Below, piece by piece: positions 4,818 to 36,463 of a stretch of DNA of 64,000 bases. The stretch lies in contig OY759726.1 of NCBI GenBank assembly GCA_963662625.1, positions 128,001 through 192,000 on the forward strand, in the 5' to 3' direction. Position 1 is the stretch's first letter, and every line of letters begins with the position of its first letter. The notes below the pieces were generated by a model that worked only from the letters and a program-made list of their open reading frames with translations, made no database searches and was not told where the DNA came from. The DNA comes from Nitrosopumilus sp. GTDB taxonomy: Archaea > Thermoproteota > Nitrososphaeria > Nitrososphaerales > Nitrosopumilaceae. Both the position numbers and the translations under genes were made by a program.

Positions 4818-4921
4818 GGAACCACCTCCAGTGATCCGTTGTCCTGCCGTGATGGCAGTGGCTGCCGCGGTTCCGCGGCGGGGGCCTGGCGGCCCCCAGT
4901 CTCGTCCCCTTCCGGCCGCGC
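4575..4921 (-). repeat. Ubl cassette plus type A leader, copy 1 (also 6986..7332 and 11191..11537)
   Basis: About 345-bp near-identical repeat; leader carries three adjacent GC hairpins and the SD. Confidence 0.95.
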
Positions 4922-4939
4922 CGGCCGCGCCGCCGCGCC

Positions 4940-7228: not shown

Positions 7229-7562
7229 GGAACCACCTCCAGTGATCCGTTGTCCTGCCGTGACGGCAGTGGCTGCCGCGGTTCCGCGGCGGGGGCCGGG
7301 CGGCCCCCGGTCTCGTCCCCTTCCGGCCGCGCCTGGCGGCCAGTCCCGGCAAGTGCCGGCCGGCGCATCTACGTTTCGGGGCCTTGGCCCCTTCCGGCCG
7401 CGGGCCCGCCAGTGGGCGGGCCGCCCGCAGCCACGCCTGGGGGGTCACCCCCAAGGCCTGGTGACGCTGCTTGTCCAACGACGGCGCGGGCCACGCCCGG
7501 GTTGGATCCGTGGTGGCATCGGGTGGTCGCGGCCGTCATGCCAACACCTGCCTCACGGGAGG

Positions 7563-8622: not shown

Positions 8623-8987
8623 GCCGTCCGTACCCCGCTGGACTTAAAAGGCCCGAAGCAAAGTCCGCGCAGCGACGCCGCCGCCGCGGCAATCCTGCCC
8701 CCTCTATCCGGCCTGGCCTGGGCCCTCCCGGCCTCGGCCGCGGCCAGCGCCAGCAGCGACCGCCGCATCCCGTCGCCGCAGCCCGGCACCCCGACGCCGT
8801 CGACGCACTGGACCCCCACCAGGGCGACGCCCCCGTCTGGCGCGACAGTAGACTTTGACCTCCGCGGGTAGTGGGCCAGCCTGACCCTGTCCCCGTGCAG
8901 TTCCACCTGCAGGGTGCCGTCGAAGTGCCTAGACACTTCCAGCATCGCCAGCACCTTGCCCTTGACGCTCTCCTGGAGCCGGCTCAT
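8619..8987 (-). CDS. Hypothetical protein
   Basis: MSRLQESVKG start; ATGA overlaps on both sides. Confidence 0.55.
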   Translation of the reverse strand: MSRLQESVKGKVLAMLEVSRHFDGTLQVELHGDRVRLAHYPRRSKSTVAPDGGVALVGVQCVDGVGVPGCGDGMRRSLLALAAAEAGRAQARPDRGGRIAAAAASLRGLCFGPFKSSGVRTA

Positions 8988-10265: not shown

Positions 10266-10948
10266 TCCCCGCCCTCCTGGGAGTTGAGCGATCTCTCCTT
10301 GCCCTCGACCGACTTCACGTGCCCCTGGATCTCCTTCGTGAGCTGCTGGAAGAAGACGTGGTCGGAGCTCTTCGGGTGGAGGAGGAAGAAGATCTTGGCT
10401 ATGATCACCATGGTCTGCGACGACACCTTGACGTCGCCGTGCACCGGTATGTTGATCACGGAGTTCATGCTCCCGCTGGAGACGATGCACACGAACTTCC
10501 ACTCGTTGTCGACACGGTAGTGCGCGGCCCCGTGCGAGTCCACCATGAACACCCCGTCCACGACGTAGTTGCCAGGTTCCGCCTCCATGTCGACCCTGTG
10601 CGGGTAGGCGCTGAAGACCGACTTTATCAGGTCCTCGTGAACCCTGATGGAGTACCACTCTCGGAATATCTCGGTGAACGCCTCGACGTCCTCGCCGAGT
10701 ATCGCCTTGCATATCCCCTCCGCGTCAGAGATCTGCATCGTCTTCCCGTCGTGGAAGGCGTTGAAGATCCCGTCGTCGTACGTCTCCCCGACGTGGGTCC
10801 CGTCGGCGAAGGTGTGGAATATCCGCTCCCCCTGGAGGCGAAGGTATTTCATCTCGTGGTACGGCGTCTTCGGCATCGTTGACACCCCCATCTCGGTCTG
10901 TATTATGTACAGGTCCTTCCTGTCCTCCAGTACCTTCACGGGTGGCAT
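10262..10948 (-). CDS. Hypothetical protein
   Basis: 228 aa with typical GC3 bias; starts 2 nt after the upstream stop. Confidence 0.75.
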   Translation of the reverse strand: MPPVKVLEDRKDLYIIQTEMGVSTMPKTPYHEMKYLRLQGERIFHTFADGTHVGETYDDGIFNAFHDGKTMQISDAEGICKAILGEDVEAFTEIFREWYSIRVHEDLIKSVFSAYPHRVDMEAEPGNYVVDGVFMVDSHGAAHYRVDNEWKFVCIVSSGSMNSVINIPVHGDVKVSSQTMVIIAKIFFLLHPKSSDHVFFQQLTKEIQGHVKSVEGKERSLNSQEGGE

Positions 10949-10950
10949 GC

Positions 10951-11433
10951 CTATGCAGACCCCCCGACGTTCCCGGATAGAAATGCTTCCACGGCAATGG
11001 CGTGGGAGCAGTGCTTCCTGAACCGGAAGCCGAGGCAGTCACACCTGCCGCTGCAGACGACGTGGACCCTTTCGGTGATCACCGCGTACGCGCCGTTGCC
11101 TATCTCCCTGACGGCGCCAGAGGCGAACAGGGCCTCCCCCTTCCGCCTGCACCTGGCGCTGGGTTCCACGGCCCGGGCCTCCTGCACGGATCCCCCCGCC
11201 ACCGCGGGGATCCCGCACACCTGCCCGGACCCGTCCAGGACTATCTCCGCCGTGGCCGGCACCCTGGCATTCAGGGTCACCGCGTACGACCTGGCGCCGT
11301 GCCGCACGATGACGGCCGCGACGTTGCCGGGCCTGAAGCCCTCCGGGAGGAGGCTCGCCGCCTCCACCGTCTTACCTGCCATGGGGATCTCGCCCCACTC
11401 TAGTTCTCCCCTGTACTTTGCTACCTGTTCCAA
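10951..11433 (-). CDS. Ubl-fusion 3: Ubl (11191..11433) plus SWIM zinc finger
   Basis: 81-aa module followed by CDCLGFRFRKHCSHAIAV (CxC-x8-CxH SWIM pattern). Confidence 0.85.
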   Translation of the reverse strand: MEQVAKYRGELEWGEIPMAGKTVEAASLLPEGFRPGNVAAVIVRHGARSYAVTLNARVPATAEIVLDGSGQVCGIPAVAGGSVQEARAVEPSARCRRKGEALFASGAVREIGNGAYAVITERVHVVCSGRCDCLGFRFRKHCSHAIAVEAFLSGNVGGSA

Positions 11434-11549
11434 GGAACCACCTCCAGTGATCCGTTGTCCTGCCGTGATGGCAGTGGCTGCCGCGGTTCCGCGGCGGGGG
11501 CCTGGCGGCCCCCGGTCTCGTCCCCTTCCGGCCGCGCTTGGCGGCGCGA

Positions 11550-12969: not shown

Positions 12970-13953
12970 CTATTTCCCCCTGCAGTACGGGGCGAAGACG
13001 TCGCTGGTCTTGACGTGCTCGTACTGGTCCCAGTCAGAGTCCAGGAGGTCCCTCTCCATCTCGTCCTGGGTGTACCCCCCTTCCGCCGAAAAGTCATGGT
13101 CCTCCAGTTCGTCCCTCAGGCTGTTGCAGAACTCGACCATGTTTGTCCTGTCGTGCGCCGTGGAGGAGTTCCACGCCTCCCTGATCTCGGCCAGGGTCTT
13201 CCCTGAGTACTGGAGCCTCGCCGCCCTGTCGTTCAGCTCAATCCTCCTGGCTTTCAGGTCATGCAGCGCGGAGCCGATCTCCCTGATTTCACTGACCAGT
13301 TTCTCGACGGTCTTCCCAGACCCGTCTCTCACCGGCCCGCCCCTGCAGTACGGGGCGAAGACGTCGCTGGTCTTGACGTGCTCGTACTGGTCCCACTTTG
13401 AATTCAGGAACTGGTGAAGCATTTCTGGCTGGCTCCAGCCCCCCTCCATGGAATAGTCGTTGTCCTGCAGTTCGTCCTCGAGGCTGCCGCAGAATTCAGT
13501 CATGGCGTACCTTTCGCCATCGTCGCCGGCGTCCCACATCTCCCGGATCTCTTCCAGGGAGTGGACGGAGTACTTTATGGCCGCGGCCTGGTCGTTCAGC
13601 GCCCTCCTCCTGGTCCTGAGTCCCAAGATCTCGATGTCGACGTCCTCGCGCCTGCCTGCGATCTTCTCGACTTCTGGCGAGTTGGCAATCAAGCCCCCAG
13701 CCCCCGGCGCGCCCCCCGCCACCGCGGGGATCCCGCACACCTGCCCGGACCCGTCCAGGACTATCTCCGCCGTGGCCGGCACCCGCGCCCGAAGGCACAC
13801 GGCGTACGACCTGGCGCCGTGCCGCACGATGACGGCCGCGACGTTGCCGGGCCTGAAGCCCTCCGGGAGGAGGCTCGCCGCCTCCACCGTCTTACCTGCC
13901 ATGGGGATCTCCCCCCACTCTAGTTCTCCCCTGTACTTTGCTACCTGTTCCAA
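12970..13953 (-). CDS. Ubl-fusion 4: Ubl (13711..13953) plus cargo with two ~120-aa coiled-coil/acidic repeats
   Basis: 81-aa module; WDQYEHVKTSDVFAPYCRG occurs twice (56-bp exact repeat 12977..13032 = 13340..13395). Confidence 0.85.
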   Translation of the reverse strand: MEQVAKYRGELEWGEIPMAGKTVEAASLLPEGFRPGNVAAVIVRHGARSYAVCLRARVPATAEIVLDGSGQVCGIPAVAGGAPGAGGLIANSPEVEKIAGRREDVDIEILGLRTRRRALNDQAAAIKYSVHSLEEIREMWDAGDDGERYAMTEFCGSLEDELQDNDYSMEGGWSQPEMLHQFLNSKWDQYEHVKTSDVFAPYCRGGPVRDGSGKTVEKLVSEIREIGSALHDLKARRIELNDRAARLQYSGKTLAEIREAWNSSTAHDRTNMVEFCNSLRDELEDHDFSAEGGYTQDEMERDLLDSDWDQYEHVKTSDVFAPYCRGK

Positions 13954-14344
13954 GATACCACCTCCGTGATATGTCGTGCCGCTCTCGCGGTCGGCGGGGG
14001 CCATGCCCCCGCGGGGCGGGCATCGTCTTCCCGGTGCCTCGGTAGTCGTTCATCCCGATCGGGATGGGTTGTCGTATTCCCCGACCCGCGCCCGGCACAC
14101 GCCGGGTTCGGGTTTCGGCGAGGCCCGCGCGGGACCAAGCCAACCCGGCCAGTGAGGCCGAGCATCCGGCGGCTGTCTGTTCCGCCAGCCGGAATCCTCA
14201 GGGGGTTTGCCCGCATCCAAGGCGGGTCACGGCTCTGAGAGTGGCCGTGATTCGCCCCGCCGCGCCGCAGGCGCCCGGGACACGTCATTTCCGGGCAGTT
14301 CCCCGGAAGTGGCGCTGGGCGCCGGCGGCGCCGGCCTGGGTTCC
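13711..14344 (-). repeat. Ubl cassette plus type B leader (634 bp), copy 1 (pairs with 15359..15992)
   Basis: Identical at offset 1648 apart from one patch in the Ubl coding part; many inverted repeats, including the ATCCCGATCGGGAT palindrome. Confidence 0.95.
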
Positions 14345-15259: not shown

Positions 15260-15601
15260 CTAGTACGCCCCCTTGAGCGCGCGCACTCCCCCGTACGTGG
15301 GGGAGGGGGTCCCGCCGGAACCCCCTTCGGCCGCGGGAATCCCGCGGGCAGCGCATGAGCCCCCCGCCACCGCGGGGATCCCGCACACCTGCCCGGACCC
15401 GTCCAGGACTATCTCCGCCGTGGCCGGCACCCTGGCATTCAGGGTCACCGCGTACGACCTGGCGCCGTGCCGCACGATGACGGCCGCGACGTTGCCGGGC
15501 CTGAAGCCCTCCGGGAGGAGGCTCGCCGCCTCCACCGTCTTACCTGCCATGGGGATCTCCCCCCACTCTAGTTCTCCCCTGTACTTTGCTACCTGTTCCA
15601 A
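15260..15601 (-). CDS. Ubl-fusion 5: Ubl (15359..15601) plus 32-aa tail
   Basis: 81-aa module followed by SCAARGIPAAEGGSGG...KGAY. Confidence 0.75.
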   Translation of the reverse strand: MEQVAKYRGELEWGEIPMAGKTVEAASLLPEGFRPGNVAAVIVRHGARSYAVTLNARVPATAEIVLDGSGQVCGIPAVAGGSCAARGIPAAEGGSGGTPSPTYGGVRALKGAY

Positions 15602-15992
15602 GATACCACCTCCGTGATATGTCGTGCCGCTCTCGCGGTCGGCGGGGGCCATGCCCCCGCGGGGCGGGCATCGTCTTCCCGGTGCCTCGGTAGTCGTTCA
15701 TCCCGATCGGGATGGGTTGTCGTATTCCCCGACCCGCGCCCGGCACACGCCGGGTTCGGGTTTCGGCGAGGCCCGCGCGGGACCAAGCCAACCCGGCCAG
15801 TGAGGCCGAGCATCCGGCGGCTGTCTGTTCCGCCAGCCGGAATCCTCAGGGGGTTTGCCCGCATCCAAGGCGGGTCACGGCTCTGAGAGTGGCCGTGATT
15901 CGCCCCGCCGCGCCGCAGGCGCCCGGGACACGTCATTTCCGGGCAGTTCCCCGGAAGTGGCGCTGGGCGCCGGCGGCGCCGGCCTGGGTTCC
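15359..15992 (-). repeat. Ubl cassette plus type B leader, copy 2
   Basis: Matches 13711..14344. Confidence 0.95.
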
Positions 15993-16954: not shown

Positions 16955-17157
16955 GCCATTCCGGGCATCCGTGCTGAGAAAGAAAACTCAGTGGGTTTGG
17001 GGGGATCGCTCCCCCCGCGTCGCGACACGGATGATGTCGCGTCCCCGTCCGGGGGCCGGGCCGTGGAATCGGCCCTCGGGTTCCACACCGGCCTGCCTGT
17101 CAGCCCTCTCGGGTAACGCCGGTTTGAACTCGGATGTCAGGTCACGAAAAAATGGTT
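16955..17157 (-). repeat. About 200-bp multi-hairpin leader repeat (pairs with 19691..19893); contains motif X
   Basis: Near-identical at offset 2736. Confidence 0.9.
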
Positions 17158-17842: not shown

Positions 17843-17866
17843 CTGTTTTTCACCTTTTCAGCGTAC

Positions 17867-17939
17867 TCCACACCGGCCTGCCTGTCAGCCGCCTTCGCGG
17901 TATTGCCGGTTTGAGTCCGCACGTCAGGTCGCGAAAAAA
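17867..17939 (-). promoter_or_regulatory. Motif X, four copies (17082..17152, 17867..17939, 19818..19888, 20652..20722)
   Basis: T5-6-(C)GYGACCTGAC-N9-CAAACCGGC-[hairpin]-CTGACAGGCAGGCCGGTGTGGA upstream of four consecutive genes. Confidence 0.7.
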
Positions 17940-17962
17940 GGTTGGTTGGATTCCTGAAGGAA

Positions 17963-19690: not shown

Positions 19691-19893
19691 GCCATTCCGG
19701 ACTCCCGTGCTGAGAAAGAAAACTCAGTGGGTTTGGGGGGATCGCTCCCCCCGCGTCGCGACACGGATGATGTCGCGCCCCCGTCCGGGGGCCGGGCCGT
19801 GGAATCGGCCCTCGGGTTCCACACCGGCCTGCCTGTCAGCCCTCTCGGGTAACGCCGGTTTGAACTCGGATGTCAGGTCACGAAAAAATGGTT
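19691..19893 (-). repeat. Leader repeat, copy 2
   Basis: Matches 16955..17157. Confidence 0.9.
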
Positions 19894-20627: not shown

Positions 20628-20775
20628 CTTCTATCTCCTGTATTTTCGCCCTCCACACCGGCCTGCCTGTCAGCCGCCTTCGCGGTATTGCCGGTTTGAG
20701 GATGAATGTCAGGTCACAAAAATAGAGGGTTCCACCGCCAAGTGGCGGGTGGTGTCGGGGCCGCCTGGCGGCCCG

Positions 20776-20964
20776 TCAGTCGAACAGACTGTAGAACTGG
20801 CTGTCTGTAAGACGTGGGACTTCGCGGGTCTCGGAGTACATGTTTGACACGTACCTGCCGTGTTCCGGAAGGTAGATGCCCTTCCCCGGAACGTATCTCC
20901 CGATGCCCTGCAGTATGCGGGCGACGTCCCTGTGAGAGTGGCCCTCTGCCACTGAAGTTGCCAT
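20776..20964 (-). CDS. Small hypothetical protein (62 aa) directly after hammerhead 1
   Basis: ATG begins 1 nt after the predicted ribozyme cleavage site. Confidence 0.65.
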   Translation of the reverse strand: MATSVAEGHSHRDVARILQGIGRYVPGKGIYLPEHGRYVSNMYSETREVPRLTDSQFYSLFD

Positions 20965-21010
20965 GGACCCCGTTCCGGGGTTTCGGCCATCAAGGCCTCG
21001 TCAGCATGGC
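20960..21010 (-). ncRNA. Type I hammerhead ribozyme 1
   Basis: gccaug CUGACGA ggcc-uugau-ggcc GAAA cccc-ggaac-gggg UC^ cauggc: complete core and three perfect stems. Confidence 0.92.
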
Positions 21011-21049
21011 TTCGTTTAGCGAAAAAAGGGGGAGGGTCCCCCGGGGTGG

Positions 21050-21646
21050 CTACCGCCTGCCGCCCATGCCGTCCCGGAGCCTTTGCCAGCGGGACTTTTT
21101 CGGTTCCACGACCTTTTTGGCGCAGAACTCGAGCCGCCGGAGGACCCCGCGGGGGAGGCACTCTTCCAGGTCAGACCTGGACTCCCCCCGGAGCAGCTGC
21201 TCCAGAACCGCCTTGCACTCGGCCGGCCCCATGGCTTGGAATTGCTCCCTGTACCAATCGGAACCGCGGAAGTCCGGCGGGTTGCAGACCAGGCACTCCT
21301 CCTCGTACTCGTCCCCGTGGGGATTGACGTGGTCGTGCGCGTCCGCTTGATCCTTTTCGATCAGTTTGGCGCCCAGCAGGTTCTGCTCGACCACCCGAGC
21401 CGATGGGAGTTCCCTCCATCCGGTGCCGATTGGCTTCCCGGAGACTACGTCCGTCAGTACGTCGCCGTCACTTATGGCGACAACATCGTTCTTGCAATAA
21501 AATTTGCAGGTTTGGCCCTCTGGGCCGGCTTGGGCGCGTACGGCGTCGTCGAGGCCTAGCCTCTCCTGTACGTGCTTGCAGACGCTTTTGGTTAAGAACG
21601 TCCTATCTCCTATGGAGATTTGCTTCATGACTGTTTGTTTTGCCAT
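21050..21646 (-). CDS. Hypothetical protein with the shared N-terminal domain, directly after hammerhead 2
   Basis: ISIGDRTF..SVC..VQ.RLGL...FYC; no SD sequence. Confidence 0.75.
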   Translation of the reverse strand: MAKQTVMKQISIGDRTFLTKSVCKHVQERLGLDDAVRAQAGPEGQTCKFYCKNDVVAISDGDVLTDVVSGKPIGTGWRELPSARVVEQNLLGAKLIEKDQADAHDHVNPHGDEYEEECLVCNPPDFRGSDWYREQFQAMGPAECKAVLEQLLRGESRSDLEECLPRGVLRRLEFCAKKVVEPKKSRWQRLRDGMGGRR

Positions 21647-21695
21647 GCGACGCCCGTGTCGGGCGTTTCGACCATTCAGGTCTCATCAGGCAGGC
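21642..21695 (-). ncRNA. Type I hammerhead ribozyme 2
   Basis: gccugc CUGAUGA gacc-ugaau-gguc GAAA cgccc-gacac-gggcg UC^ gca(u)ggc. Confidence 0.88.
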
Positions 21696-21715
21696 TGTCT
21701 GGGCGTCTTTCAAAA

Positions 21716-21723
21716 ATTAAATA
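21716..21723 (-). promoter_or_regulatory. TATA box heading the leftward region
   Basis: TATTTAAT about 21 nt upstream of the 5' end of hammerhead 2. Confidence 0.55.
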
Positions 21724-22359
21724 CTCGGGGGTCCAACATCAGGTGGTGGGGGCTCAGTTGTCGTAATATCCAACTGTGTTCATCATGGAACAGTCAGTTG
21801 TCGTTTCATTCATCATCGCCCTCACCATCCAAGCCCGTCCCAAGGGACGGCCATCCCAAATCGAACACTAAAATAACTCAGGGGCCGCCTGGAGGTGGCG
21901 AGGGGTCAGATTTAGAATCAAATCACCATGTGATTCATAGTGCAAATCGTTCATCATCCCCCTCGCCTTGGAAACTTCAGGCCTGAATCGCCCCAAAACC
22001 GTGTACCTCCTGACGGGGGACACCTCTCCCCGGCTCCGGGAAATGTCCCTGTGACGGGAATGTTTGGTCGGCATGAAAAATCCAGCAGGGAAGATAGGGG
22101 GTTTACTAGGGTCCGATTTTGTGTTTGGTGTTTTGTTCCTATTTCGACCGGAACGCCCACCATAACCGCGAAGGATACTAGGGAGTTCGGGTTTTGTCGG
22201 AGCCCGCAGACGTCCTCCCCCGCAGGGTATATGGATCGCGCCGTCCCGGGGTTGCCAACGGGGCCACTGGCTGCCGGCGCGGCCGCGCCGTACAGGAACG
22301 TGGCACGTGCCACCAGGAATCCAAGACCCGCGTTAAATATCACTGCCGTTGTGTCCAGT

Positions 22360-23513: not shown

Positions 23514-24461
23514 CTACCGCAGTCCGTAAGGCCCGACAAACCGTTCCCCGTCAAAGTGGATCATGTGGTCCGGGTCGTCGGCAACCCACACCTCGGTCTC
23601 CCACGATATGTCAGACGCGTATTTTCTCATGGTGTCCCTGTCTGCAAATGCCGTAACGTATACGATTCCGGCCTTAGCCCCAGAGAACATCCCCTGAAGC
23701 TCCCTTCTCCTCTTTGTGTCTACAGGGCCATGGCTTGTGACGGCCTCAATGACAAAAATCCATTCCCGCACCGTGTCGTACATCACCATGTCCGGCATCT
23801 TGCCGTGTGGATCCAGATTGACCCCGAGTTTTGAGAGTAAATTCCGGTCAAAGTACGCGAACTTTTTTGCAGTGTCGCCGACATATACGGGCACATGCTT
23901 CTTCATGAACCTGGAGGTGAATTCGACGTAGATGTCCCTCACGAGGTGGCTGTGTTCCCCGGCAGACAGACGAACCGTCTCCGCCGGTGAAACGTGTATG
24001 GAAACCGCCCCGTCCCTCCTCCTGTATGGGGTTCCCCCATGCCGCAATGGGTGCGTTGCAAGGTACATTTCGAGGTGCTTCTTCCAGGTCTTTTCCCCGT
24101 AGCTTTGCATCAGCTTTAGCGATTCCGGGGTGATCTGGTAGACGGTCTTGCCGCTGTTGGTTGGCCTGTCCGGATTGTCCGGGTTTTCTGATATCAGCGA
24201 CGCGTGCAGGAACTGGTGGATCGTCTGCCTCCGCACCGTCTCACGTGAGTTCGGCGCGTACCTCTTTCCGTAATGTTCCGCAAAGAAGTCCATCATCGGC
24301 GTGATCCCACGGAGCGGGTTTTTTGCCTTCTTCCATGTCCCGTCAGGCCTCAAGTCCAGCAGCGCAAGAAGCGTGAGCGCCGACCTGACGTTTTGCTGTC
24401 TTTTCGGGAGCCCGATCTGTTTCAGGACGTCCAATGCCTCCTCTACCCTTGGATGGATCAA
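23514..24461 (-). CDS. BsuBI/PstI-family type II restriction endonuclease (315 aa)
   Basis: YAPNSRETVRRQTIHQF; HGKMPD...IEAVTSHGP; ISWETEVW...HMIHFDG. TTGA overlap with the MTase stop. Confidence 0.92.
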   Translation of the reverse strand: MIHPRVEEALDVLKQIGLPKRQQNVRSALTLLALLDLRPDGTWKKAKNPLRGITPMMDFFAEHYGKRYAPNSRETVRRQTIHQFLHASLISENPDNPDRPTNSGKTVYQITPESLKLMQSYGEKTWKKHLEMYLATHPLRHGGTPYRRRDGAVSIHVSPAETVRLSAGEHSHLVRDIYVEFTSRFMKKHVPVYVGDTAKKFAYFDRNLLSKLGVNLDPHGKMPDMVMYDTVREWIFVIEAVTSHGPVDTKRRRELQGMFSGAKAGIVYVTAFADRDTMRKYASDISWETEVWVADDPDHMIHFDGERFVGPYGLR

Positions 24462-25975
24462 TGCCTCCCCGCCACCTGGCCGGACAGCAGTCCGCCTACC
24501 GCCCCGTCTATCTCGTCTTGGCCCATCCAACACGCGGTGCGCCGCCCAAGGCTCCCAATCTGCCTCTTGGACGGGTACCTCAGGTACCTCAAATCTGCGG
24601 CGTTGACCTGCGTGCTCCCGTTGAACTGTCGAAAATAGGCATCGACCGCGCTGGAGTTTAGAAAGGCCCACAGTCCTTGCGCCACATTGCCCGCAAGTGG
24701 ACCGCCGCCACTGTGAAAATAATTCACCCTGTTTTCAAAGCCCACCAGATCGGAATCGTGCTCACTGCCGCTCCACACGGATGCCGTGACTCTCCTCCTC
24801 TGTTCTACCGTGGTGAAGCGTTTCACCAGGACGTAGTGGCCATTGGCGACTAGGAGTTTTTTTGACCTTTCGCTTGGCGCGATAAAGTTACAGTGCTTTG
24901 TGTTCCTGCCAGGAAACTGTGTCTTCCCGTCAGATATGTTGAATGGCCTGACCAGGGGGACCGCGTCCTCCCCGTCAGAGAATCTGAGGTCGTCGCTTAT
25001 CCTGAAATCCACCACCTTTCCGGTGGAGACCTCGACGCCAATGTCGCTGAGCGTGCATGGGAGCCGGCGCATCATCTCGGATATCCGCGCCCCAGCCTCG
25101 TCTGGCACTATGTGTATGAACATGTGCGGATCGTCGCCGAACACGATGTCGGATTTTTCCACGCGCCTTTGCACCATGTCGTCCGCCGGGCCAACACTGG
25201 CGGACACCACGGCCTTCCTGTTGGCGCCGTTCTTTCTGGCGCATATTATCACGTTCTCCTGGAGCACCCCGTCGTCACTGAACGATGATGTCCTCGACCT
25301 GAACAGATGGATCCTTTTCGGGGACATCGATCCGAGGAAATCCCTCCTGAAAGGATGGAAATAGGCGCCGTTGCAGAAGCTCCGTGGCGAGATGAATGTC
25401 ATCTGGCCTCCCGTGCCTAGCAGGTTGTGGGAGATGGCGATGAACGCTGAATACATGTTTGTCGTCTGTAACCCGACGCCGCGCAGCGTACCATACGTGT
25501 CTGATGACACGTTGATCTTTTGGTACGGGGGGTTCATTATGACATGCGTGAAACCTCCGGAGAGGGCGTCAGCCGAGGCCGCATAGTCATCAATAAAGTC
25601 CCTCTTCTCCAGGATGCCGGAGAACTCCACCCCGACGTCCCGACACGCGTCGCCGGCATGCCCCAGCGCCGCGTCTATGCCGCCGGATAGTGCGCCATCT
25701 ACCTCGTAGGCCACCACATGTATCGAGTCAGGCAGTCGCCTCCTGTCACATATGCGCTGGACGCACGCGGTGAAGAGGGAACCGGCGCCGGCCCCTGGAT
25801 CAAGGATCCGGATGTCCTTTTGGGAATAGTCCATCATCGATGCCATGAGGTTGGCGACGGAGGGGCTGGAGAAGTACTGCCCGAGCTTTTCCTTTTTTGC
25901 AAGATTTTTGCCTAGCGATTGCCTTGCCGTGCAGGTTCGTTCCAGGAACCCGACGCCCTGCGCTGTGGCGGTCAC
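24458..25975 (-). CDS. N6-adenine DNA methyltransferase (BsuBI/PstI/Eco57I-like)
   Basis: LGQYFS, ILDPGAGAG, NPPY, FRQFNGSTQVNAADLR. Confidence 0.93.
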   Translation of the reverse strand: MTATAQGVGFLERTCTARQSLGKNLAKKEKLGQYFSSPSVANLMASMMDYSQKDIRILDPGAGAGSLFTACVQRICDRRRLPDSIHVVAYEVDGALSGGIDAALGHAGDACRDVGVEFSGILEKRDFIDDYAASADALSGGFTHVIMNPPYQKINVSSDTYGTLRGVGLQTTNMYSAFIAISHNLLGTGGQMTFISPRSFCNGAYFHPFRRDFLGSMSPKRIHLFRSRTSSFSDDGVLQENVIICARKNGANRKAVVSASVGPADDMVQRRVEKSDIVFGDDPHMFIHIVPDEAGARISEMMRRLPCTLSDIGVEVSTGKVVDFRISDDLRFSDGEDAVPLVRPFNISDGKTQFPGRNTKHCNFIAPSERSKKLLVANGHYVLVKRFTTVEQRRRVTASVWSGSEHDSDLVGFENRVNYFHSGGGPLAGNVAQGLWAFLNSSAVDAYFRQFNGSTQVNAADLRYLRYPSKRQIGSLGRRTACWMGQDEIDGAVGGLLSGQVAGRH

Positions 25976-27762
25976 CCCGTGTCTCCCCCAGCCCCGGCAA
26001 GGCCGTTCAGGAAGTCACTTATTCGCGCGTTGGCGTCGGGAAGATGCACCGGGATTGGAAGGCCGTCTATTCCGGTAGCGCTGTGGCTTATGAGCAGCCA
26101 CTGGCCCACGCCAAACCGCAGCGATTCCTGCAACGTTTCGTCAGATAGCCCGAATGCCTCCTGTATTTTTTCCCTGTCCGATGCCCGCGGGAGCTTGCTC
26201 ACAAAGTACGTGTGCGGCTGCCCGAGTATGTTGGTGTCCAGGTACACTATCCTCTGGGTGGCTATCCCTATGCCCAGGCCGTACTTTCTCCCACGTCTCG
26301 CGAGCTGCTCCCCCATATGCTTTGATTCCTTCATCCCGGGCTGTTTGTCATCCTGCGCGATGAATTGGTCAGCCTCGTCGTAGATGAACGAGACGGGCGG
26401 CGATATGATCCCTCCCTCCCTTCTTGAGCGGAGCATACGCATTCCAAGCGTGTTTGAGAATTCCCTGACCTTCACGTCGTCTGTGTCCTGTATGATGTAA
26501 AGCGAGCTGGTTGAATCCCGGTTGAGATCCATAACCATGTCGCCGCCTGAGATCTTGTATTTTTGATCCACCTTCTCAACGTTTGAGAGCGTCTTCTTGG
26601 TGTCATTCAGCTTCAAAATAACCCTGAGCCTTAGGTTGTCTGCCTTTGCATGCGAACTCTGGGTAAAGTCATGGCTGTCCAGTTTTGTGATCAGGGTCTC
26701 TATGTCACTGACGGTGCATTTCCTACGGCCGCATCCATCCAGTATTGAAATGAGTTCCCGCGAGGCAGCTGATGTGTCTGCTGAGTCGACGATGTCCCGG
26801 AGCAGTTTTGCAATAGTCTGATCGTCTGGAATCAACACTTTGATCTTTCCACCCATCAGCATGCTTTTGACTGGCTTGTGGAACATCTCTCGTTTGCCAG
26901 CAAGCATCTTTGGGAGTACCGTGGTCTTCACTATGTCCATGGCTGCAGTGTCTGCATTGCTCGCAGATGCGTCACCCCAGAAACGATGCACGGAGCTTGG
27001 GACTGCATCGTATGAAAGAAACACGATGTACGCGTCATCGCTGCCGTACAGTACGTCTGCGAGCAGTATGCCGTATTCCCCCATGAGATCGTAGATCACG
27101 GCCTTGACGGAACCGCGGCTTTCAAATATCTTGGACGTGACTGTGCTCAGAAGGTTTGACTTGCCGGCATTGGTGTATGCGAACACCCCAAAGTGCGTCC
27201 GTATCATGCTGTCCCACAGCGCGAGTATCTCGACGTCTTTCATGTTTGCGAGGGTTCCGAGCACTACGGTGCCGTCCTGACCCTGTAGGTCATGGTTTAT
27301 GATCCTACGCGTCCACTCGGAGTTGAGCAGCCTGGCCCGCTCGCCAGGCATGGGGATGTTGGTCTCTGGTGCCATCTCGGGCTCTCTGCCGTCCATGGAG
27401 CGAGGCCTTGTCACCTCAAACCTGCTTGGCACTGCATCGCACACTATCTTGGTTGTGTCCTCGACCGGCTTGTTCTGGTTCCAGTCCTTGGATGCGCTCA
27501 TTGCGGCTTCTTCCACGAATCCCGGATACCCGTCCATGCTTGCCATCATGGCATAGTGTGTGGGCATTACAGACGTTATCCTCATCACGCTGTAGTGGTC
27601 GACGTCTTTGTTGCTTGAAAAGTTCCTCACGGCCACCAGCGACCCTTCCCGGATCGCATTCATGTGGGAACGCACGAAAGGAAACCAGATCGTAAACCCC
27701 ATGCTTGTCTGGCTTGACTTTCTCATGTCCATCAGCGTTCCTGATATTCCATCTTCAAACAA
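25972..27762 (-). CDS. herA: HerA-family ATPase/helicase
   Basis: N-terminal barrel; HFGVFAYTNAGKS; YDLMGEY; DEADQF; ARRGRKYGLGIGIATQR. Confidence 0.88.
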   Translation of the reverse strand: MFEDGISGTLMDMRKSSQTSMGFTIWFPFVRSHMNAIREGSLVAVRNFSSNKDVDHYSVMRITSVMPTHYAMMASMDGYPGFVEEAAMSASKDWNQNKPVEDTTKIVCDAVPSRFEVTRPRSMDGREPEMAPETNIPMPGERARLLNSEWTRRIINHDLQGQDGTVVLGTLANMKDVEILALWDSMIRTHFGVFAYTNAGKSNLLSTVTSKIFESRGSVKAVIYDLMGEYGILLADVLYGSDDAYIVFLSYDAVPSSVHRFWGDASASNADTAAMDIVKTTVLPKMLAGKREMFHKPVKSMLMGGKIKVLIPDDQTIAKLLRDIVDSADTSAASRELISILDGCGRRKCTVSDIETLITKLDSHDFTQSSHAKADNLRLRVILKLNDTKKTLSNVEKVDQKYKISGGDMVMDLNRDSTSSLYIIQDTDDVKVREFSNTLGMRMLRSRREGGIISPPVSFIYDEADQFIAQDDKQPGMKESKHMGEQLARRGRKYGLGIGIATQRIVYLDTNILGQPHTYFVSKLPRASDREKIQEAFGLSDETLQESLRFGVGQWLLISHSATGIDGLPIPVHLPDANARISDFLNGLAGAGGDTG

Positions 27763-27768
27763 TTGAAA

Positions 27769-29592
27769 CTACCTCCCAAAATTGCGCCTTATTTCCCTTA
27801 ATGTGTTTATCAGCGGCCGCGATCGGAACTTTATCTCGGAGCTATCGAGCAGTTTTCTCACGCTGTCCCTCATGGACTTTGCCCCCTGGTCTGCCTTGTG
27901 GAGGGGGTCGGGATACCCTATCATCTCCGAGAAGTGGTTTTTCGTGAGCGTGTCAAGCAGGAAATAAGTCACCAGTTGTCCCCTGTTTGTAGTCTTGTTT
28001 GACTGGTAGAAGAACGGCCTCATCTCGCCGGTGCTGGCGTCACTGATCTCGATCCGTTCTGACTCCCCGTCCCATTCCGGAAATGCGAGCCTGTCTATGA
28101 ATATGGCGTGGCCGGTAAGCGGGGACTCGGCACTGCGCCTGGTGTAAAACTGCGCTATGGATCTCAGGAACAGGCATTCCGGCCTGGCTATCCCCCCAAA
28201 CGTGCCGCCAAACTCCTCCTTCCCGCCTCGCTCCTCAACGCGCAGTGTCATGAATGTGGAGTCAAACTCTATCGTGCCCCATGGGCTGTTCAGCCCGTCG
28301 TCTATGTACGGAAGCATCTCGCAGAATACGCGGTCTGTAGGGGGCAGCACTCCGAATGTTTTGCCTGACAATTGCCTGTATTTTCCAAAATGCCGGCACA
28401 CGCCAATGTAGTTTTTTGTCAGGTATGCAGATGCCGAGTCTTTTGCTATCCCGGTCAGCAGTATCTTCCTTGACCAGCATTCTTCTATCAGTGCCCGCAG
28501 CCCTACAGCGATGAGGAACCTCACGTCGTCGGGCGACATCCATTTTGCCACTTTCCTGCCCGCGTCAACCGCCTCGTATTTGAGAGCGTTCTCCCTCTTG
28601 TCGAGGAATATGGCCTTGCAGATTCCCTGGAACATGGACTTTGTCTTCTCCCAGCTCTTGTACGGTTCAATCTTTTGGGTTATGTCGCCAGACGGTCCGA
28701 GCTCCACTATTCCGTTCCCCGCCAGCCCCCGAACCACGCGCTCGAGCCTCTCGCGCCTTATTCCTGTTTCGGATGAGATGTCTTCCATGCGGATGGCCCC
28801 TGGTCCTTTCTCGTGCAGGAACCGCATGACTGATGACCTTTCCGTGAATTTCTTCGTGCTTGGGATCCCCAGTTCAGAGTTGAATGGGTGGGCCTGGGCT
28901 ACAATTACGTCCTGCTTGCTAAACACCATGCCATCAGACATCGCGCAACCCACAAGTCGAACCTTGTCTGCGCCAAAGTCAGTGTAGCCCAGCATGCCGC
29001 TCAGGCTGTTGTCTATCAATATTATGTCCGGGCGGTCCAGGTTTGAACTCGTGGCCGAATTGTACGCAAGGAAGATCTCGGCAAGCTGCATCATCGGGAG
29101 GTGCATGCTCGTAAGCTCTATCTTGTCTGACTCGGATACCGCGAACATGTTTGCCTCCCTGCCGTCGTTTACCTCCAGTATCCTGCTGTATGGAATTGGC
29201 ACGAATGCGACCATGCTCACGTCCTTTTCTATCTCCCACCGCCTGTATTCCACAGTCGCCTCCCCGCCAGACAGGGACAGCACCCCCTTTGCGCCATATG
29301 CCCCCCCGTAAAACGAGATGAACTCCCCCGAGCTGTGCTTGTGGCAGCTCCCATCCACCGCAACAAAGTTCAGCTCGCGTTTCCCAAAAAAGCCCTCGGT
29401 CTCGTCTGCCACCATGTTAACAAATTCCCTGTCCGCGAGCCTTCCTCCCATGTTAACTGTCAGGTCCCTGAAAAAATCATTGTAAAACTCCCTTGCGTTT
29501 GATGAGCCAAGCCGCACGGTTTCCTCATATTCGTCCTGGGCCTGATCCAAGCTTCTCTTGTATGACGAATAAATCTCGGAGATCCGCCCCAT
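27769..29592 (-). CDS. nurA: NurA-family nuclease with HTH-like insert
   Basis: FVAVDGS, ILIDNSL, GIAKDS, GYPDPLHKAD; adjacent to HerA. Confidence 0.85.
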   Translation of the reverse strand: MGRISEIYSSYKRSLDQAQDEYEETVRLGSSNAREFYNDFFRDLTVNMGGRLADREFVNMVADETEGFFGKRELNFVAVDGSCHKHSSGEFISFYGGAYGAKGVLSLSGGEATVEYRRWEIEKDVSMVAFVPIPYSRILEVNDGREANMFAVSESDKIELTSMHLPMMQLAEIFLAYNSATSSNLDRPDIILIDNSLSGMLGYTDFGADKVRLVGCAMSDGMVFSKQDVIVAQAHPFNSELGIPSTKKFTERSSVMRFLHEKGPGAIRMEDISSETGIRRERLERVVRGLAGNGIVELGPSGDITQKIEPYKSWEKTKSMFQGICKAIFLDKRENALKYEAVDAGRKVAKWMSPDDVRFLIAVGLRALIEECWSRKILLTGIAKDSASAYLTKNYIGVCRHFGKYRQLSGKTFGVLPPTDRVFCEMLPYIDDGLNSPWGTIEFDSTFMTLRVEERGGKEEFGGTFGGIARPECLFLRSIAQFYTRRSAESPLTGHAIFIDRLAFPEWDGESERIEISDASTGEMRPFFYQSNKTTNRGQLVTYFLLDTLTKNHFSEMIGYPDPLHKADQGAKSMRDSVRKLLDSSEIKFRSRPLINTLREIRRNFGR

Positions 29593-29623
29593 CGGGGTTA
29601 GTCCGCAGGCCTCGTATTAAAGA

Positions 29624-30613
29624 TCATTCGTCTGAGCGTTCCAAGCATCTTCTCATCCTAGCTCCCAGGATCATGGCGAAGAGGGGTGGCATGGCGTTGC
29701 CTATCTGTTTCATCTTGCTGTATTTGGAACCGGAAAACCCAAACCAGTCTGGAAACCCCTGCAGCCTGGCGGCCTCCCTGACAAAAAGTGTGCGCCTCCT
29801 TCCGTCACGGGTCCGGATCCGGTGCATGTCGCTTGAGTGCCCTCCCAGGTTTCTGCATGTCAGTGTCCGCGCTGGTCTGCCACGATCCAGGTCGCGTGCC
29901 CGGCGACATTGGGATGCCATTTCGTATGCCGATATGTATCGGTCCATCTCGGGCGTCAGGTATGACGGTTCCTCCCTCTCCGCTCTGGGGATGTTTTTCA
30001 GCGCCTCCCCGGCGGTCACCTGTACCCCGAGCCCGGACGGGGGCAGGTATCCACCGTGATGCCCTATTGCAATCACGCGTTCCCGGCTTTGCGGAACCCC
30101 GTAATCAGAGCAGTTTGCGACCGACACGTCCACAGAGTACCCGAGTTTTTCGAGCCTTTTCATCGATGATGTGAAATAGTCCCTGTTTCTGTACAGCATC
30201 CCGCGCACGTTCTCAAAGACCCACATCCTGGGCTTGAGTTGTTTCACGGCCGCTACGAATGAGGGAATTCCATTCCTGTCGTCCATCGGGCCCATCTGCT
30301 TGCCGCGCACGCTGAATGGCTGGCACGGGGGTCCGCCTGCCACTATGTCTGCGTATGGAAAGTCGTACCCCGGAGTGATGGATCCGTTCACGCAGGTTCC
30401 CCTCAGGTTGGAATTATATGTGGCGCAGCAGTCCGGGTTGCTGTCTATTCCGATCACCTTGAAACCTGCCGCCTCCAGTCCCAGGGACAGCCCGCCTGCG
30501 CCGGAATATATGTCAAGCACCGCGTATCTTGGGTTTTTTTTTGGCCTCAGAATTTTATCCAGTTCCGCCGCATAGTTTTTCTTGAGTGCGCACGGGTCGA
30601 TCAAGGTTTGCAA
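29624..30613 (-). CDS. dcm: C5-cytosine DNA methyltransferase
   Basis: YSGAGG, GGPPCQPFS, ENV, PQSRER, EAARLQGFPD, QIGNA. Confidence 0.95.
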   Translation of the reverse strand: MQTLIDPCALKKNYAAELDKILRPKKNPRYAVLDIYSGAGGLSLGLEAAGFKVIGIDSNPDCCATYNSNLRGTCVNGSITPGYDFPYADIVAGGPPCQPFSVRGKQMGPMDDRNGIPSFVAAVKQLKPRMWVFENVRGMLYRNRDYFTSSMKRLEKLGYSVDVSVANCSDYGVPQSRERVIAIGHHGGYLPPSGLGVQVTAGEALKNIPRAEREEPSYLTPEMDRYISAYEMASQCRRARDLDRGRPARTLTCRNLGGHSSDMHRIRTRDGRRRTLFVREAARLQGFPDWFGFSGSKYSKMKQIGNAMPPLFAMILGARMRRCLERSDE

Positions 30614-35033: not shown

Positions 35034-36463
35034 TGGCAGCGGCCTCCCCAGCGGGCCCGTGCCAGATCAAGCCGGCGCTCGTAGAGCGCTATCACGAGGT
35101 CGACGTCCCCCCCTATGGCGGAATCCCAGTCTATGGCGCGCAGGGCCCCATCGAGCGTGAGCATCCTGGGGGTCCTCCCCCCGATCCCGCGGATCATGGA
35201 GATCTCCTCCCCGGGGTCGCCGCCCGCGGAGGCGAGCTTCCCGCCATCGGCCAGCAGCACCACCATGTCGGCGCCGTCCCGTCGGACCGTGAACCACTCC
35301 CCAGGCATGATGGGCTTCCACGCGTCCGGGCCGGCCACGTAAAGCACCTCCGCCCCGCTGAACGTGAAGTGGCGGTTGGGCCTGGCGCGGACGCCAAGAT
35401 CCCCGTCGCGGGACGCCATCACCACGCAGTGCGCCACCCCGCTGACGGCCGCCTTCTTCACGGCATCCTCCACGAGGAAGCGGATGGACTCCACGCAGTC
35501 CAGTATCGCCGGTTCCCCCTCCGCGTAGTCCAGGACCGGGACGCCCCCATTCCCGGGGGACAGCCTGGCGACTCGCCCGCAGTCCGGGCACCTCGCCTTC
35601 CTGCCATGGGCGCCGCCCAACGGCCACGCGCAGTCCCCCCACGAGTGGTGGACGCGCACGCAGTCGGGCGTGGGCGCCACCACGTCCACCCTGATCTCCA
35701 GGCTGGGGAGCCCCTTCCCCTTCCAGCCGGGTTCCGGCTCGACGTACAACCCATCATCCGCCCGGCGGCCCCCGCGGGGGCCCTCCACGCTGCCGGGATC
35801 GTCCACCCCAGTTTCAAAGTCGCCGCCCATGGGGCCGTACATCACCGCCCTGAACCCCCCGGCGCCGTGGTCCATCTTCATGATCTCCCCCAGGCACGCC
35901 AGCCTGGCGCGCTCCTGGTCGCCGCCGTACACCCTGAATGGGTCGCATCCCTCGTCGAACTCCACGACGTACATCCCCATCGGTTCCATGGGGGAATGGA
36001 ATGGGGCGAACGCGCCGTGGGGAAGGCTGCCTCCCCCCTCCTTCACGCCAAGGCCCGCCGCCCCCGGCGACTTCCCGCCGGAGTCGGGCTTTGGGCTGCA
36101 GCCCGCCCCCTTCCCCGCGGGGCCCCCGGACTTGCGCGGCCTGCCCCTCCTCCTTTTGGCGCCGCCGGCCGGCCCTTGGCCAGGCACCTGCGACTCGCGC
36201 GGCCCTTCCCCCCCGGGCGCGCCCCCGGCCACGGCCGGGATCCCGCACACCTGCCCGGATCCGTCACGCGCCAGTTCGGCGCCCTCGGGCACCATCGAGT
36301 CCAGCGTGACGGCGTAGGACATCCCGCCGTGCCTCACGATCACCGCCGCCACGTCGTCCGCCGCGAACCCGTCAGGGAGGAGGCTCCTGGCCTTCGCCGC
36401 CTTCCCAGGCTTGGGGATCTCGCCCCACTCCAGCTTCCCTCTGTACTTTGCCAACCGTCCCAT
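35030..36463 (-). CDS. Ubl-fusion 6: divergent Ubl (36221..36463), AT-hook-like motif, and a repeat related to the Ubl-fusion 2 cargo
   Basis: MGRLAKYRGKLEWGEIP...VCGIPAVAGG (81 aa); KRRRGRPRK; TTTTATA box about 23 nt upstream. Confidence 0.8.
   Translation of the reverse strand: MGRLAKYRGKLEWGEIPKPGKAAKARSLLPDGFAADDVAAVIVRHGGMSYAVTLDSMVPEGAELARDGSGQVCGIPAVAGGAPGGEGPRESQVPGQGPAGGAKRRRGRPRKSGGPAGKGAGCSPKPDSGGKSPGAAGLGVKEGGGSLPHGAFAPFHSPMEPMGMYVVEFDEGCDPFRVYGGDQERARLACLGEIMKMDHGAGGFRAVMYGPMGGDFETGVDDPGSVEGPRGGRRADDGLYVEPEPGWKGKGLPSLEIRVDVVAPTPDCVRVHHSWGDCAWPLGGAHGRKARCPDCGRVARLSPGNGGVPVLDYAEGEPAILDCVESIRFLVEDAVKKAAVSGVAHCVVMASRDGDLGVRARPNRHFTFSGAEVLYVAGPDAWKPIMPGEWFTVRRDGADMVVLLADGGKLASAGGDPGEEISMIRGIGGRTPRMLTLDGALRAIDWDSAIGGDVDLVIALYERRLDLARARWGGRCQ

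Follow-up and report, generated by a model that had tools for sequence, protein, structure and literature searches.

Two hammerhead ribozymes with the start codon of the following gene in stem I in an ammonia-oxidising archaeon of the Nitrosopumilaceae

Hammerhead ribozymes that flank genes in prophages are already known, as is the idea that clustered prophage copies cut long RNAs into messenger RNAs (mRNAs) of single genes (Perreault 2011, PMC3088659). Ribozyme-dependent translation is likewise already known from eukaryotic RNA viruses. Here two such motifs, HH1 and HH2, are described from the minus strand of a 64,000-nucleotide (nt) stretch of DNA (the window) from Nitrosopumilus sp., contig OY759726.1, positions 128,001 to 192,000. 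In both, the start codon of the next open reading frame (ORF62 behind HH1, ORF198 behind HH2) lies within stem I of the ribozyme, one or two nt after the predicted cut.

The prophage and phage type I hammerheads resemble HH1 and HH2 in core, in open-stem-I topology and in being intergenic, on the same strand, often in tandem and in mobile DNA (PMC3088659). In addition, prophage hammerheads flank ardA (PMC3088659), and an ArdC-N gene is found in the same block as HH1 and HH2. The 87 viral and bacterial copies collected in this work share the AGCC...GGCA frame of stem I and a stem II of 4 base pairs (bp) with a 5-nt loop. In that phage clade, however, the cut lies 24–66 nt before the start and leaves a leader with a Shine-Dalgarno (SD) sequence, whereas here the AUG is in stem I and the leader would be 1–2 nt long. 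The HHphage motif of the haloarchaeal viruses HF1/HF2 also lies just upstream of the first gene of its transcript, and a 5′ end mapped no more than 3 nt from the cut suggests that it is active in vivo. It differs in cutting 13 nt ahead of the start codon and in carrying an insertion in its core, a variant for which the authors suggest a possible response to salt; no small RNA (sRNA) is associated with it (PMC3088659).

Cleavage is needed for, or promotes, translation initiation in chrysoviruses and fusariviruses with type I hammerheads in the 5′ untranslated region and in retrotransposons with 5′ ribozymes resembling that of hepatitis delta virus (Lopez-Galiano et al. 2026, PMC13725137). Those systems are alike in that self-cleavage occurs upstream of an ORF and initiation proceeds without the usual 5′ signal; they differ in being eukaryotic and cap-independent, with a mechanism given as unknown and the ribozyme far from the AUG, while the route considered here is archaeal leaderless initiation (PMC13725137). 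An engineered hammerhead placed between transcription start and AUG produces mRNA that begins at the start codon with a 5′-hydroxyl (5′-OH), the very product predicted here for the natural ribozymes, and binds the 30S subunit of S. solfataricus; apart from being engineered, that system differs in that the 5′-OH is the less favourable end there (PMC11698992).

Both HH1 and HH2 have the type I core (CUGANGA, GAAA and UC) together with the G10.1-C11.1 and C15.2-G16.2 pairs. The hammerhead core in general is made up of C3-U4-G5-A6-N7-G8-A9, G12-A13-A14, an A15.1-U16.1 pair and H17 at the cleavage site. HH1 reads A-GCCAUG-CUGACGA-GGCC(UUGAU)GGCC-GAAA-CCCCG(GAA)CGGGG-UC^C-AUG-GC and HH2 reads A-GCCUGC-CUGAUGA-GACC(UGAAU)GGUC-GAAA-CGCCCG(ACA)CGGGCG-UC^GC-AUG-GC, where the caret marks the predicted cut. 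Each combines a 4-bp stem II with a 5-nt loop, a stem III of 5–6 bp with a 3-nt loop, and an open stem I. The predicted cut in HH1 is at 20966/20965, with a new 5′ end at 20965 and the ATG at 20964–20962 in the 3′ strand of stem I; in HH2 it is at 21649/21648, with a new 5′ end at 21648 and the ATG at 21646–21644, again in stem I. The lowest-energy fold of HH1 is the hammerhead three-way junction (−24.7 kcal/mol, z −2.8), in which the AUG is paired in stem I. That of HH2 is the hammerhead junction as well (−24.0 kcal/mol, z −3.4), with the U of the AUG as a one-base bulge.

A type I descriptor run over the 1.86-Mb genome gave five matches, four of them strong (stem I at least 3, stem II at least 4 and stem III at least 5 bp), namely HH1, HH2 and two at a second locus, while 20 first-order Markov genomes gave no strong match and a lenient mean of 2.05. 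A site at genome position 452625 was rejected as a hammerhead (stems 1/3/4). A plus-strand gene running over the ribozymes was also rejected, the plus-strand ORFs there having non-coding GC contents at the three codon positions (GC1/2/3). Rfam gave no match at the gathering score anywhere in the window. Below threshold, Hammerhead_1 (RF00163) scored 19.9 bits on HH2 (cut-off 34, E 0.12) and did not report HH1, on which RAGATH-1-hammerhead reached 19 bits (cut-off 56.3). In a gathering-score scan of five loci, one copy from a genome of the same genus (G002) passes Hammerhead_1 with 35.4 bits, and none of the structurally perfect phage hammerheads at the other four loci does. This means that the Rfam model is insensitive to this hammerhead clade. 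An earlier note on this DNA had described two canonical hammerheads with the AUG paired in stem I and cuts 1 nt (HH1) and 2 nt (HH2) ahead of it, and had proposed Rfam as a check. Its coordinates proved correct, and the identification is borne out by core sequence, fold, covariation (see below) and the strong matches that simulated genomes do not produce; the Rfam check itself gave nothing at the gathering score and a sub-threshold hit on each motif.

The same genome (1,858,698 bp, 63.4% GC; G000) holds further copies. A second locus (L001, genome positions 1,808,000–1,810,400, minus strand) contains a decaying, 93% identical copy of window positions 20770–21762, with HH2b, a copy of ORF198 that has lost single nucleotides at three places, HH1b, in which an extra A precedes U16.1, and an intact copy of ORF62. 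Its third unit is HH2c, ahead of an unrelated ORF of 189 amino acids (aa); this ORF runs antisense into a JAB/MPN-like gene on the opposite strand. Compensatory differences occur in stems II and III among the five host-genome copies, from which a covariance model (R1) was built; HH2 scores 82.3 bits with this model but was in its training set. The R1 search found five copies on one contig of G002 and a degenerate copy on another (C24), two copies in G029 and one in G103, which represent a second and a third genus of the family, and one copy each in five genomes from other families of the order; a further family of the phylum also has a single copy.

At E ≤ 0.01, 4 of 151 genomes of the family sample match (3 of 150 besides G000, of which 2 are true hammerheads), and 8 of 151 match in the order sample at E ≤ 0.001 and 2 of 151 in the phylum sample. 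The distribution among the sampled genomes is thus sporadic, though the filters were strict and the model narrow, so that copies were certainly missed, as the one in G103 was. The family-sample match in G019 (L011, L017) is not a hammerhead, and it was rejected together with those in G042 (L010), G038, G045 and G008, which lack a CUGANGA core or are truncated. Across 17 copies from nine loci, in an alignment fitted to the model and therefore favouring the structure, 94.9% of cells are paired and 12 of 15 pairs have changed on both sides; none of 500 shuffles was as high, and slid controls were 24–40% paired. Duplicates also decay: beside the extra A of HH1b and the degenerate copy on C24, one G002 copy (G002_e) has G12 changed to U. 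HH1 and HH2 belong to a large phage hammerhead clade.

The position of the start codon is conserved across the family. In 12 of 13 copies from four genomes (five in G000, five in G002, one of two in G029 and one in G103) an AUG stands at +1 or +2 after the predicted cut, never at 0. The exception, G029_b, has a GUG that opens 11 codons and is followed by element X, a structured RNA treated below. The ORFs opened in G000 have 62 (HH1), 62 (HH1b), 198 (HH2), 94 (HH2b, frameshifted) and 189 aa (HH2c), those in G002, copies a to e, 27, 39, 93, 56 and 39 aa, and those of G029_a and G103 227 and 223 aa. Stem I covaries around the fixed AUG (GCCAUC/GAUGGC versus AGUCAUU/AAUGACU), with codon 2 going from Ala to Thr. 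The G029 and G103 ORFs encode orthologous secreted SNase-like proteins (by Pfam for G029 and by an alignment made by eye), and their ribozymes keep an identical layout although stems II and III are quite different. Moreover, the G103 protein has at that AUG a basic n-region, a hydrophobic core and an A-x-A site, a textbook signal peptide, and the AUG is therefore a real start.

Outside the family the spacing is different. An unbiased pattern, AGCC-N3-CUGANGAG-N11-CGAAAC, matched 92 viral and 58 genome stretches; of 103 pattern matches, 89 are well-formed type I hammerheads, typically AGCCUAA...GUC^UUAGGCA. Among the well-formed viral and bacterial copies (those outside G002) only 1 of 87 has an AUG at +1. 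Instead, 51 of 74 unique clade copies lie 24–66 nt before the start of an ORF of at least 60 aa, compared to 20.5% of random positions in the same loci, and an SD-like tetramer is present in 46 of these 51. In other families of the Nitrososphaerales and one other family of the phylum, all six copies lie 6–28 nt before a large ORF; the five ORFs measured have 318–480 aa and comprise two secreted proteins with an EB_dh domain, one phage tail tube protein and two without a family. The sequence of 24–66 nt with an SD in phages of bacteria, 6–28 nt in the other families and 1–2 nt here suggests that spacing follows the initiation mode of the host.

That host is an ammonia-oxidising archaeon of the Nitrosopumilaceae and not a hyperthermophile. 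Across 1221 long ORFs with a coding-like GC pattern, the starts of hexamers made of A/T only peak sharply at −29 from the first ATG, with counts of 125, 140 and 114 at −30, −29 and −28 and about 15–25 elsewhere, and the same ORFs show no purine peak at −6 to −12 before the first ATG. Archaeal TATA boxes lie about 26–27 nt before the transcription start. Most host transcripts would thus begin at or beside the AUG, and leaderless mRNA is, by this promoter-to-ATG geometry, the default form in this genome. The 3′ end of the 16S rRNA retains CCUCC.

It is proposed, with somewhat better than even confidence, that HH1 and HH2 are active hammerheads that make 5′ ends, freeing near-leaderless 5′-OH mRNAs for the default initiation route of the host. 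In the uncut RNA the AUG would be held in stem I, neither free nor 5′-terminal. Self-cleavage after C17 would strip off the ribozyme together with the upstream sRNA or leader, or for HH1 the upstream cistron, and leave a 5′-OH mRNA with 1–2 nt ahead of the AUG. Stem I, with its 6 bp (about −6 to −8 kcal/mol), would then melt, and the freed end would enter leaderless initiation. The benefit would be insulation, in that a nearby promoter and read-through would yield the same near-leaderless end, and a compact element could place sRNAs and several genes in series on a single transcript and would need no SD sites. RiboJ-type insulators, which are laboratory ribozymes, set exact 5′ ends. HH1 and HH2 probably serve the first two genes of the leftward gene block, which is itself probably derived from a mobile element.

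Several premises of the earlier note hold in this light. No SD is available to either gene, because the stretch ahead of each AUG is stem III of the ribozyme, and its appeal to leaderless translation agrees with the −29 peak and with the cut-beside-AUG layout kept in three other genomes. Its wording of a "gated" translation "switch" finds no support: the motif is a minimal hammerhead of 52–55 nt without a sensor or ligand domain, Rfam showed no riboswitch family, and there is no sign of regulation, so that constitutive processing fits equally well. Control of the ribozymes by a protein is conceivable. The TATA box by which it had put a transcription start at about the 5′ end of HH2 corresponds to an A/T-only run that begins 28 to 22 nt before the first base of stem I, but HH1 has only a run of six T (T6) at −17.

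The origin of the transcripts bears on what cleavage would achieve. From the run ahead of HH2, transcription would be expected to begin at the edge of the stem I 5′ strand or a few bases into it, and some of these starts would disable the ribozyme; the site is uncertain by a few nt, and a start only 3–6 nt further in would disable stem I. Similar A/T spacings are found at G002_a (−28 to −26), G002_c (−30), G002_d (−29) and the G103 copy (T6 at about −30), and together with the −29 rule they would place the starts at the first bases of stem I, so that the primary transcript would begin with the ribozyme. In two G002 units no A/T hexamer lies farther out than −25 to −22, and the only one at G029_a is at −52. 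The run ahead of HH2 could also be an oligo-T terminator for the upstream sRNA. For HH1 and HH1b the sole T6 run, at −17/−16, cannot serve an intact ribozyme, and both therefore have to be reached by transcripts that read past an apparent leaky terminator behind ORF198. Proximal promoter and read-through probably both serve as origins, which favours insulation as the function. Should most transcripts come from the proximal promoter, the change from 5′-triphosphate to 5′-OH, or a delay of translation, would matter.

A number of observations weigh against the proposal of ribozyme-made leaderless mRNAs. The motifs, their fold, covariation, conserved placement and the host promoter-to-ATG geometry are observed; cleavage, transcription starts, release of stem I and translation are predicted. 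Among sequencing runs that match window positions 20700–22100 none from RNA was listed, and three runs of one study contain the region as DNA contigs. The hammerhead is not the lowest-energy fold in two of six folded copies (HH2c and G029_a). No loop-loop or pseudoknot contact of the kind that gives fast cleavage at cellular Mg2+ was seen when a complement of loop II was sought in the flanks by eye; the unpaired A's flanking stem I and the bulged U of HH2 could be candidates for tertiary contacts. A hammerhead-made 5′-OH leaderless mRNA does bind the 30S subunit of S. solfataricus, but a triphosphate stabilises the complex and its removal weakens it, the triphosphate mimicking a −1 base in leaderless initiation (PMC11698992). 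The real −1 base kept in 13 of 13 natural products may compensate for the lost triphosphate. A start at the ribozyme edge implies that a plain leaderless promoter would give the same frame, so leader removal would not be the whole benefit.

The coding evidence for ORF198 and ORF62 is also weaker than that for the SNase-like ORFs of G029 and G103. Their GC1/2/3 values (0.65/0.41/0.77 and 0.57/0.44/0.71, against a genome median of 0.62/0.51/0.85) are coding-like. Pfam, PHROGs and NCBIfam gave nothing for either, and word-index and HMMER searches found no homologue outside their own genome, only a paralog or self; a second HMMER match (E 3.8e-4, over a 15-residue stretch) was taken as noise. The sole relative of ORF198 is the frameshifted paralog, and ORF62 has one paralog, which differs from it by 2 synonymous and 6 non-synonymous changes and so gives no demonstration of purifying selection. 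At 63% GC long ORFs come cheaply, and length alone says little: 48% of the ATGs of the genome open at least 62 codons and 18% at least 198. Finally, a pattern forcing AGCCAU, run on metagenomes, gave 14 well-formed UC^U-AUG-G hammerheads of which only 3 open at least 35 codons. An AUG is thus not a start codon simply because it lies in stem I, and it is the family-wide link to ORFs that counts. On two AT-rich metagenome contigs (L186 and L192), UC^U-AUG hammerheads open ORFs of 82 and 59 codons directly after the apparent end of an upstream coding region. From such sequences, the layout may also occur outside the Nitrosopumilaceae.

The hammerheads are accompanied by two other kinds of RNA. 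Boxes C (RUGAUGA), D′ (CUGA), C′ (UGAUGA) and D (CUGA), guides of about 12 nt and a terminal stem identify archaeal C/D box sRNA genes, and canonical ones end 32–50 nt before HH2, HH2b, HH2c and four of the five G002 copies. In the window, gene A has a 12-nt D′ guide and a 22-nt D guide, ends about 50 nt before HH2, has a mismatch in its terminal stem and matches Rfam sR1 below the cut-off (19.9 bits, E 0.02), while gene B has degenerate internal D′/C′ boxes that are canonical in its paralog. By a family-specific pattern, this sRNA type is confined in G000 to the two hammerhead loci. The G002 sRNAs have guides of 12 + 12 nt, and one 12-nt guide is 11/12 identical between the 63% GC host and a 39% GC contig of G002. 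The D′ guide of gene A has no match with at most one mismatch in 16S (23S and the tRNAs were not mapped separately), and the sole exact genome match of its 12-nt and 22-nt guides is their own gene.

Element X is about 100 nt long and consists of a T-run and GUGACCUGACA followed by a multi-stem RNA, in which 10 of 20 predicted pairs have changed on both sides. It occurs in 10 of 151 genomes of the family, usually in same-strand clusters (9 copies in 21 kb of G029, 5 in 1.7 kb of G103), and has at least four copies in the G002 array, where it stands before the sRNA at fixed spacing with sRNA and hammerhead. An ORF often starts no more than about 30 nt downstream of it; sometimes the leader is longer. 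Considered as a known ribozyme class, it was rejected: Rfam gave no match at the gathering score in the window and none at E ≤ 10 for copy 1. Element X may be a new structured leader or processing signal. In the leftward block, genes behind element X that lack a hammerhead show AGGAG or GGUGA 8 nt ahead of their ATG, so the block has two solutions for genes behind structured RNA, an SD site or a ribozyme.

The company of sRNAs raises the question of whether the ribozymes chiefly serve to process non-coding RNA or to generate the 3′ ends of mRNAs, the nearby AUG being a by-product of tight packing. The sRNA or element X would then be released from a co-transcript, or the upstream end with its 2′,3′-cyclic phosphate would be trimmed to a small ribonucleoprotein (sRNP) or circularised. 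This would account for the sRNAs just upstream of most copies, for their confinement to hammerhead loci in the host and for the fixed spacing of the G002 units, two of which, having only the nearer hexamers, would start inside the ribozyme and argue for read-through. HH1, G002_a, G029_a and the G103 copy, however, have no upstream sRNA and are nevertheless predicted to cut 1–2 nt before an AUG; packing alone fails to explain an AUG that is always in a covarying stem I; and the 16S gene offers no target for the guide. We regard this explanation as unlikely. It is quite improbable, in our judgement, that cleavage lowers or times expression, the loss of the 5′-triphosphate causing the mRNA to initiate poorly or decay faster and the genes of the element to be kept low. 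De-phosphorylated leaderless mRNA does give weaker toeprints than triphosphorylated mRNA in S. solfataricus (PMC11698992), and if transcription starts at the ribozyme edge, the triphosphate of the uncut RNA would sit on the ribozyme and not on the AUG. But in uncut RNA the AUG, enclosed in a helix some 50 nt downstream of the 5′ end and without an SD, should be translated even worse, the base or bases ahead of the AUG (at least 1 nt in all 13 copies) may make up for the triphosphate, and the relatives in phages and other archaea precede SD-led and probably well-expressed genes such as that of the tail tube protein.

A low probability is likewise given to the idea that the hammerheads are relics of a selfish RNA or DNA element, such as tandem ribozymes making circular RNA, with no role in translation. 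Sporadic occurrence, the decaying copies HH1b, G002_e and that on C24, and the tandem same-strand array of five in 2.5 kb of G002 would all be expected of such relics. Spliced or circular products of tandem hammerheads were considered by Perreault 2011, and none was detected there (PMC3088659). Relics would not be expected to stand in frame with an ORF starting 1–2 nt past the cut in 12 of 13 copies, nor to keep their layout ahead of orthologous SNase genes in two genera despite diverged stems. That the motifs are chance matches or inactive look-alikes is very improbable: the window does not reach Rfam gathering thresholds, but strong matches were absent from all 20 simulated genomes, compensatory changes cross species and one homologue passes Rfam. 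The production of near-leaderless 5′-OH mRNAs is thus the reading preferred here.

A wider proposal can be made only tentatively, and we think it rather less likely than not to be right as a whole. The unit of element X, C/D sRNA, hammerhead and ORF with its AUG in stem I might be an RNA-processing architecture of Nitrosopumilaceae mobile elements that cuts long transcripts into near-leaderless 5′-OH mRNAs, a natural counterpart to engineered ribozyme insulators suited to a host that initiates at 5′-terminal AUGs, along with sRNA fragments ending in a 2′,3′-cyclic phosphate, and the distance from cut to start might be an evolvable dial that follows the initiation mode of the host. The sRNP could cap the ends of the sRNA fragments, or RtcB, by its known ligation chemistry, could join them into circular C/D sRNAs such as have been seen in other archaea.

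The leftward block extends from 21.6 kb down to about 8 kb of the window and consists mostly of ORFs without a family, with SNase-domain, ArdC-N-like anti-restriction and JAB-domain genes among them. Its gene content, the neighbouring DNA with restriction-modification and HerA/NurA-like genes and the sporadic distribution of the hammerheads suggest that a mobile or viral island has integrated here. Neither an integrase nor a tRNA border was found for it, and the window has no tRNAs. To the right of the hammerhead block, window positions 23514–30613 form an island of lower GC (0.52–0.58) with genes for a BsuBI/PstI-type restriction enzyme, an Eco57I-type methylase, HerA-like and NurA-like proteins and a C5 cytosine methylase, and have the appearance of a defence island adjoining the block. 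A repeat of about 350 nt has at least six copies in the window (4576–4930, 6984–7340, 11189–11547, 13711–13981, 15357–15629 and 36211–36462) and others at genome positions 124776–125234 and 1777474–1777923; most copies are 93–99% identical, with about 75% identity to outliers. Its position over the 5′ part of several minus-strand ORFs suggests paralogous genes with a common N-terminal module. A 634-nt duplication (13711–14344 versus 15359–15992) is 98.6% identical, and a tblastn search of phage records with ORF558 gave no match. The coordinates of the features are collected in Table 1.

Table 1. Positions of the ribozymes, reading frames, candidate signals and associated RNAs (window coordinates unless another locus is named)
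Feature	Position	Strand	Remarks
HH1, type I hammerhead	20960..21011	minus	stem I 5′ strand 21010-21005; core CUGACGA 21004-20998; C17 at 20966; from sequence, descriptor, covariance model and fold
HH2, type I hammerhead	21642..21696	minus	stem I 5′ strand 21695-21690; core CUGAUGA 21689-21683; C17 at 21649; from sequence, descriptor, covariance model and fold
ORF62	20776..20964	minus	62 aa; start codon in HH1 stem I; no family
ORF198	21050..21646	minus	198 aa; start codon in HH2 stem I; no family
A/T-only run TATTTAATTTTT	21712..21723	minus	candidate TATA box for a transcript from the 5′ edge of HH2
T6 run	21022..21027	minus	after ORF198 stop, 17 nt before HH1; too near to promote an intact HH1
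C/D box sRNA-like gene A	21745..21826	minus	box C GAUGAUGA, D′ CUGA, C′ UGAUGA, D CUGA, terminal stem
C/D box sRNA-like gene B	21897..21967	minus	9-bp terminal stem
C/D box sRNA-like genes in L001	about 8720-8800, 8879-8940, 10290-10420	minus	upstream of hammerhead units
Element X copy 1	20629..20729	minus	T-run, GUGACCUGACA, covarying multi-stem RNA; precedes ORF238 (ATG 20627, AGGAG 8 nt before)
Element X copy 2	19795..19893	minus	
Element X copy 3	17844..17944	minus	precedes SNase-domain ORF228 (ATG 17842, GGUGA 8 nt before)
Element X copy 4	17059..17157	minus	
Element X in L020	about 2036-1939, 1511-1411, 771-674, 355-258	minus	
Element X in L021	11579-11677	plus	

A literature search found no earlier account of a start codon in stem I, of a near-leaderless product in an archaeon dominated by leaderless mRNA, or of spacing matched to the host, though archaeal copies may be among the alignments in the supplement to Perreault 2011; nor did it find the link between hammerheads, C/D box sRNAs and element X described before. 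Phage and microbial DNA abounds in small self-cleaving ribozymes, whose biological purpose is for the most part unknown. A start codon in stem I offers a concrete one: if the proposal is true, cutting yields a message with a 5′-terminal AUG, the form that is normal for the ribosomes of this host. The comparison with phages suggests a general rule, in which ribozymes set the 5′ ends of mRNAs to suit host translation. The proposal would also give 5′-OH leaderless mRNAs a natural role, a point of relevance to structural work on archaeal initiation, and it would tie ribozymes to the production of C/D box sRNAs, giving the little-known mobile elements of ammonia-oxidising archaea an RNA toolkit of their own.

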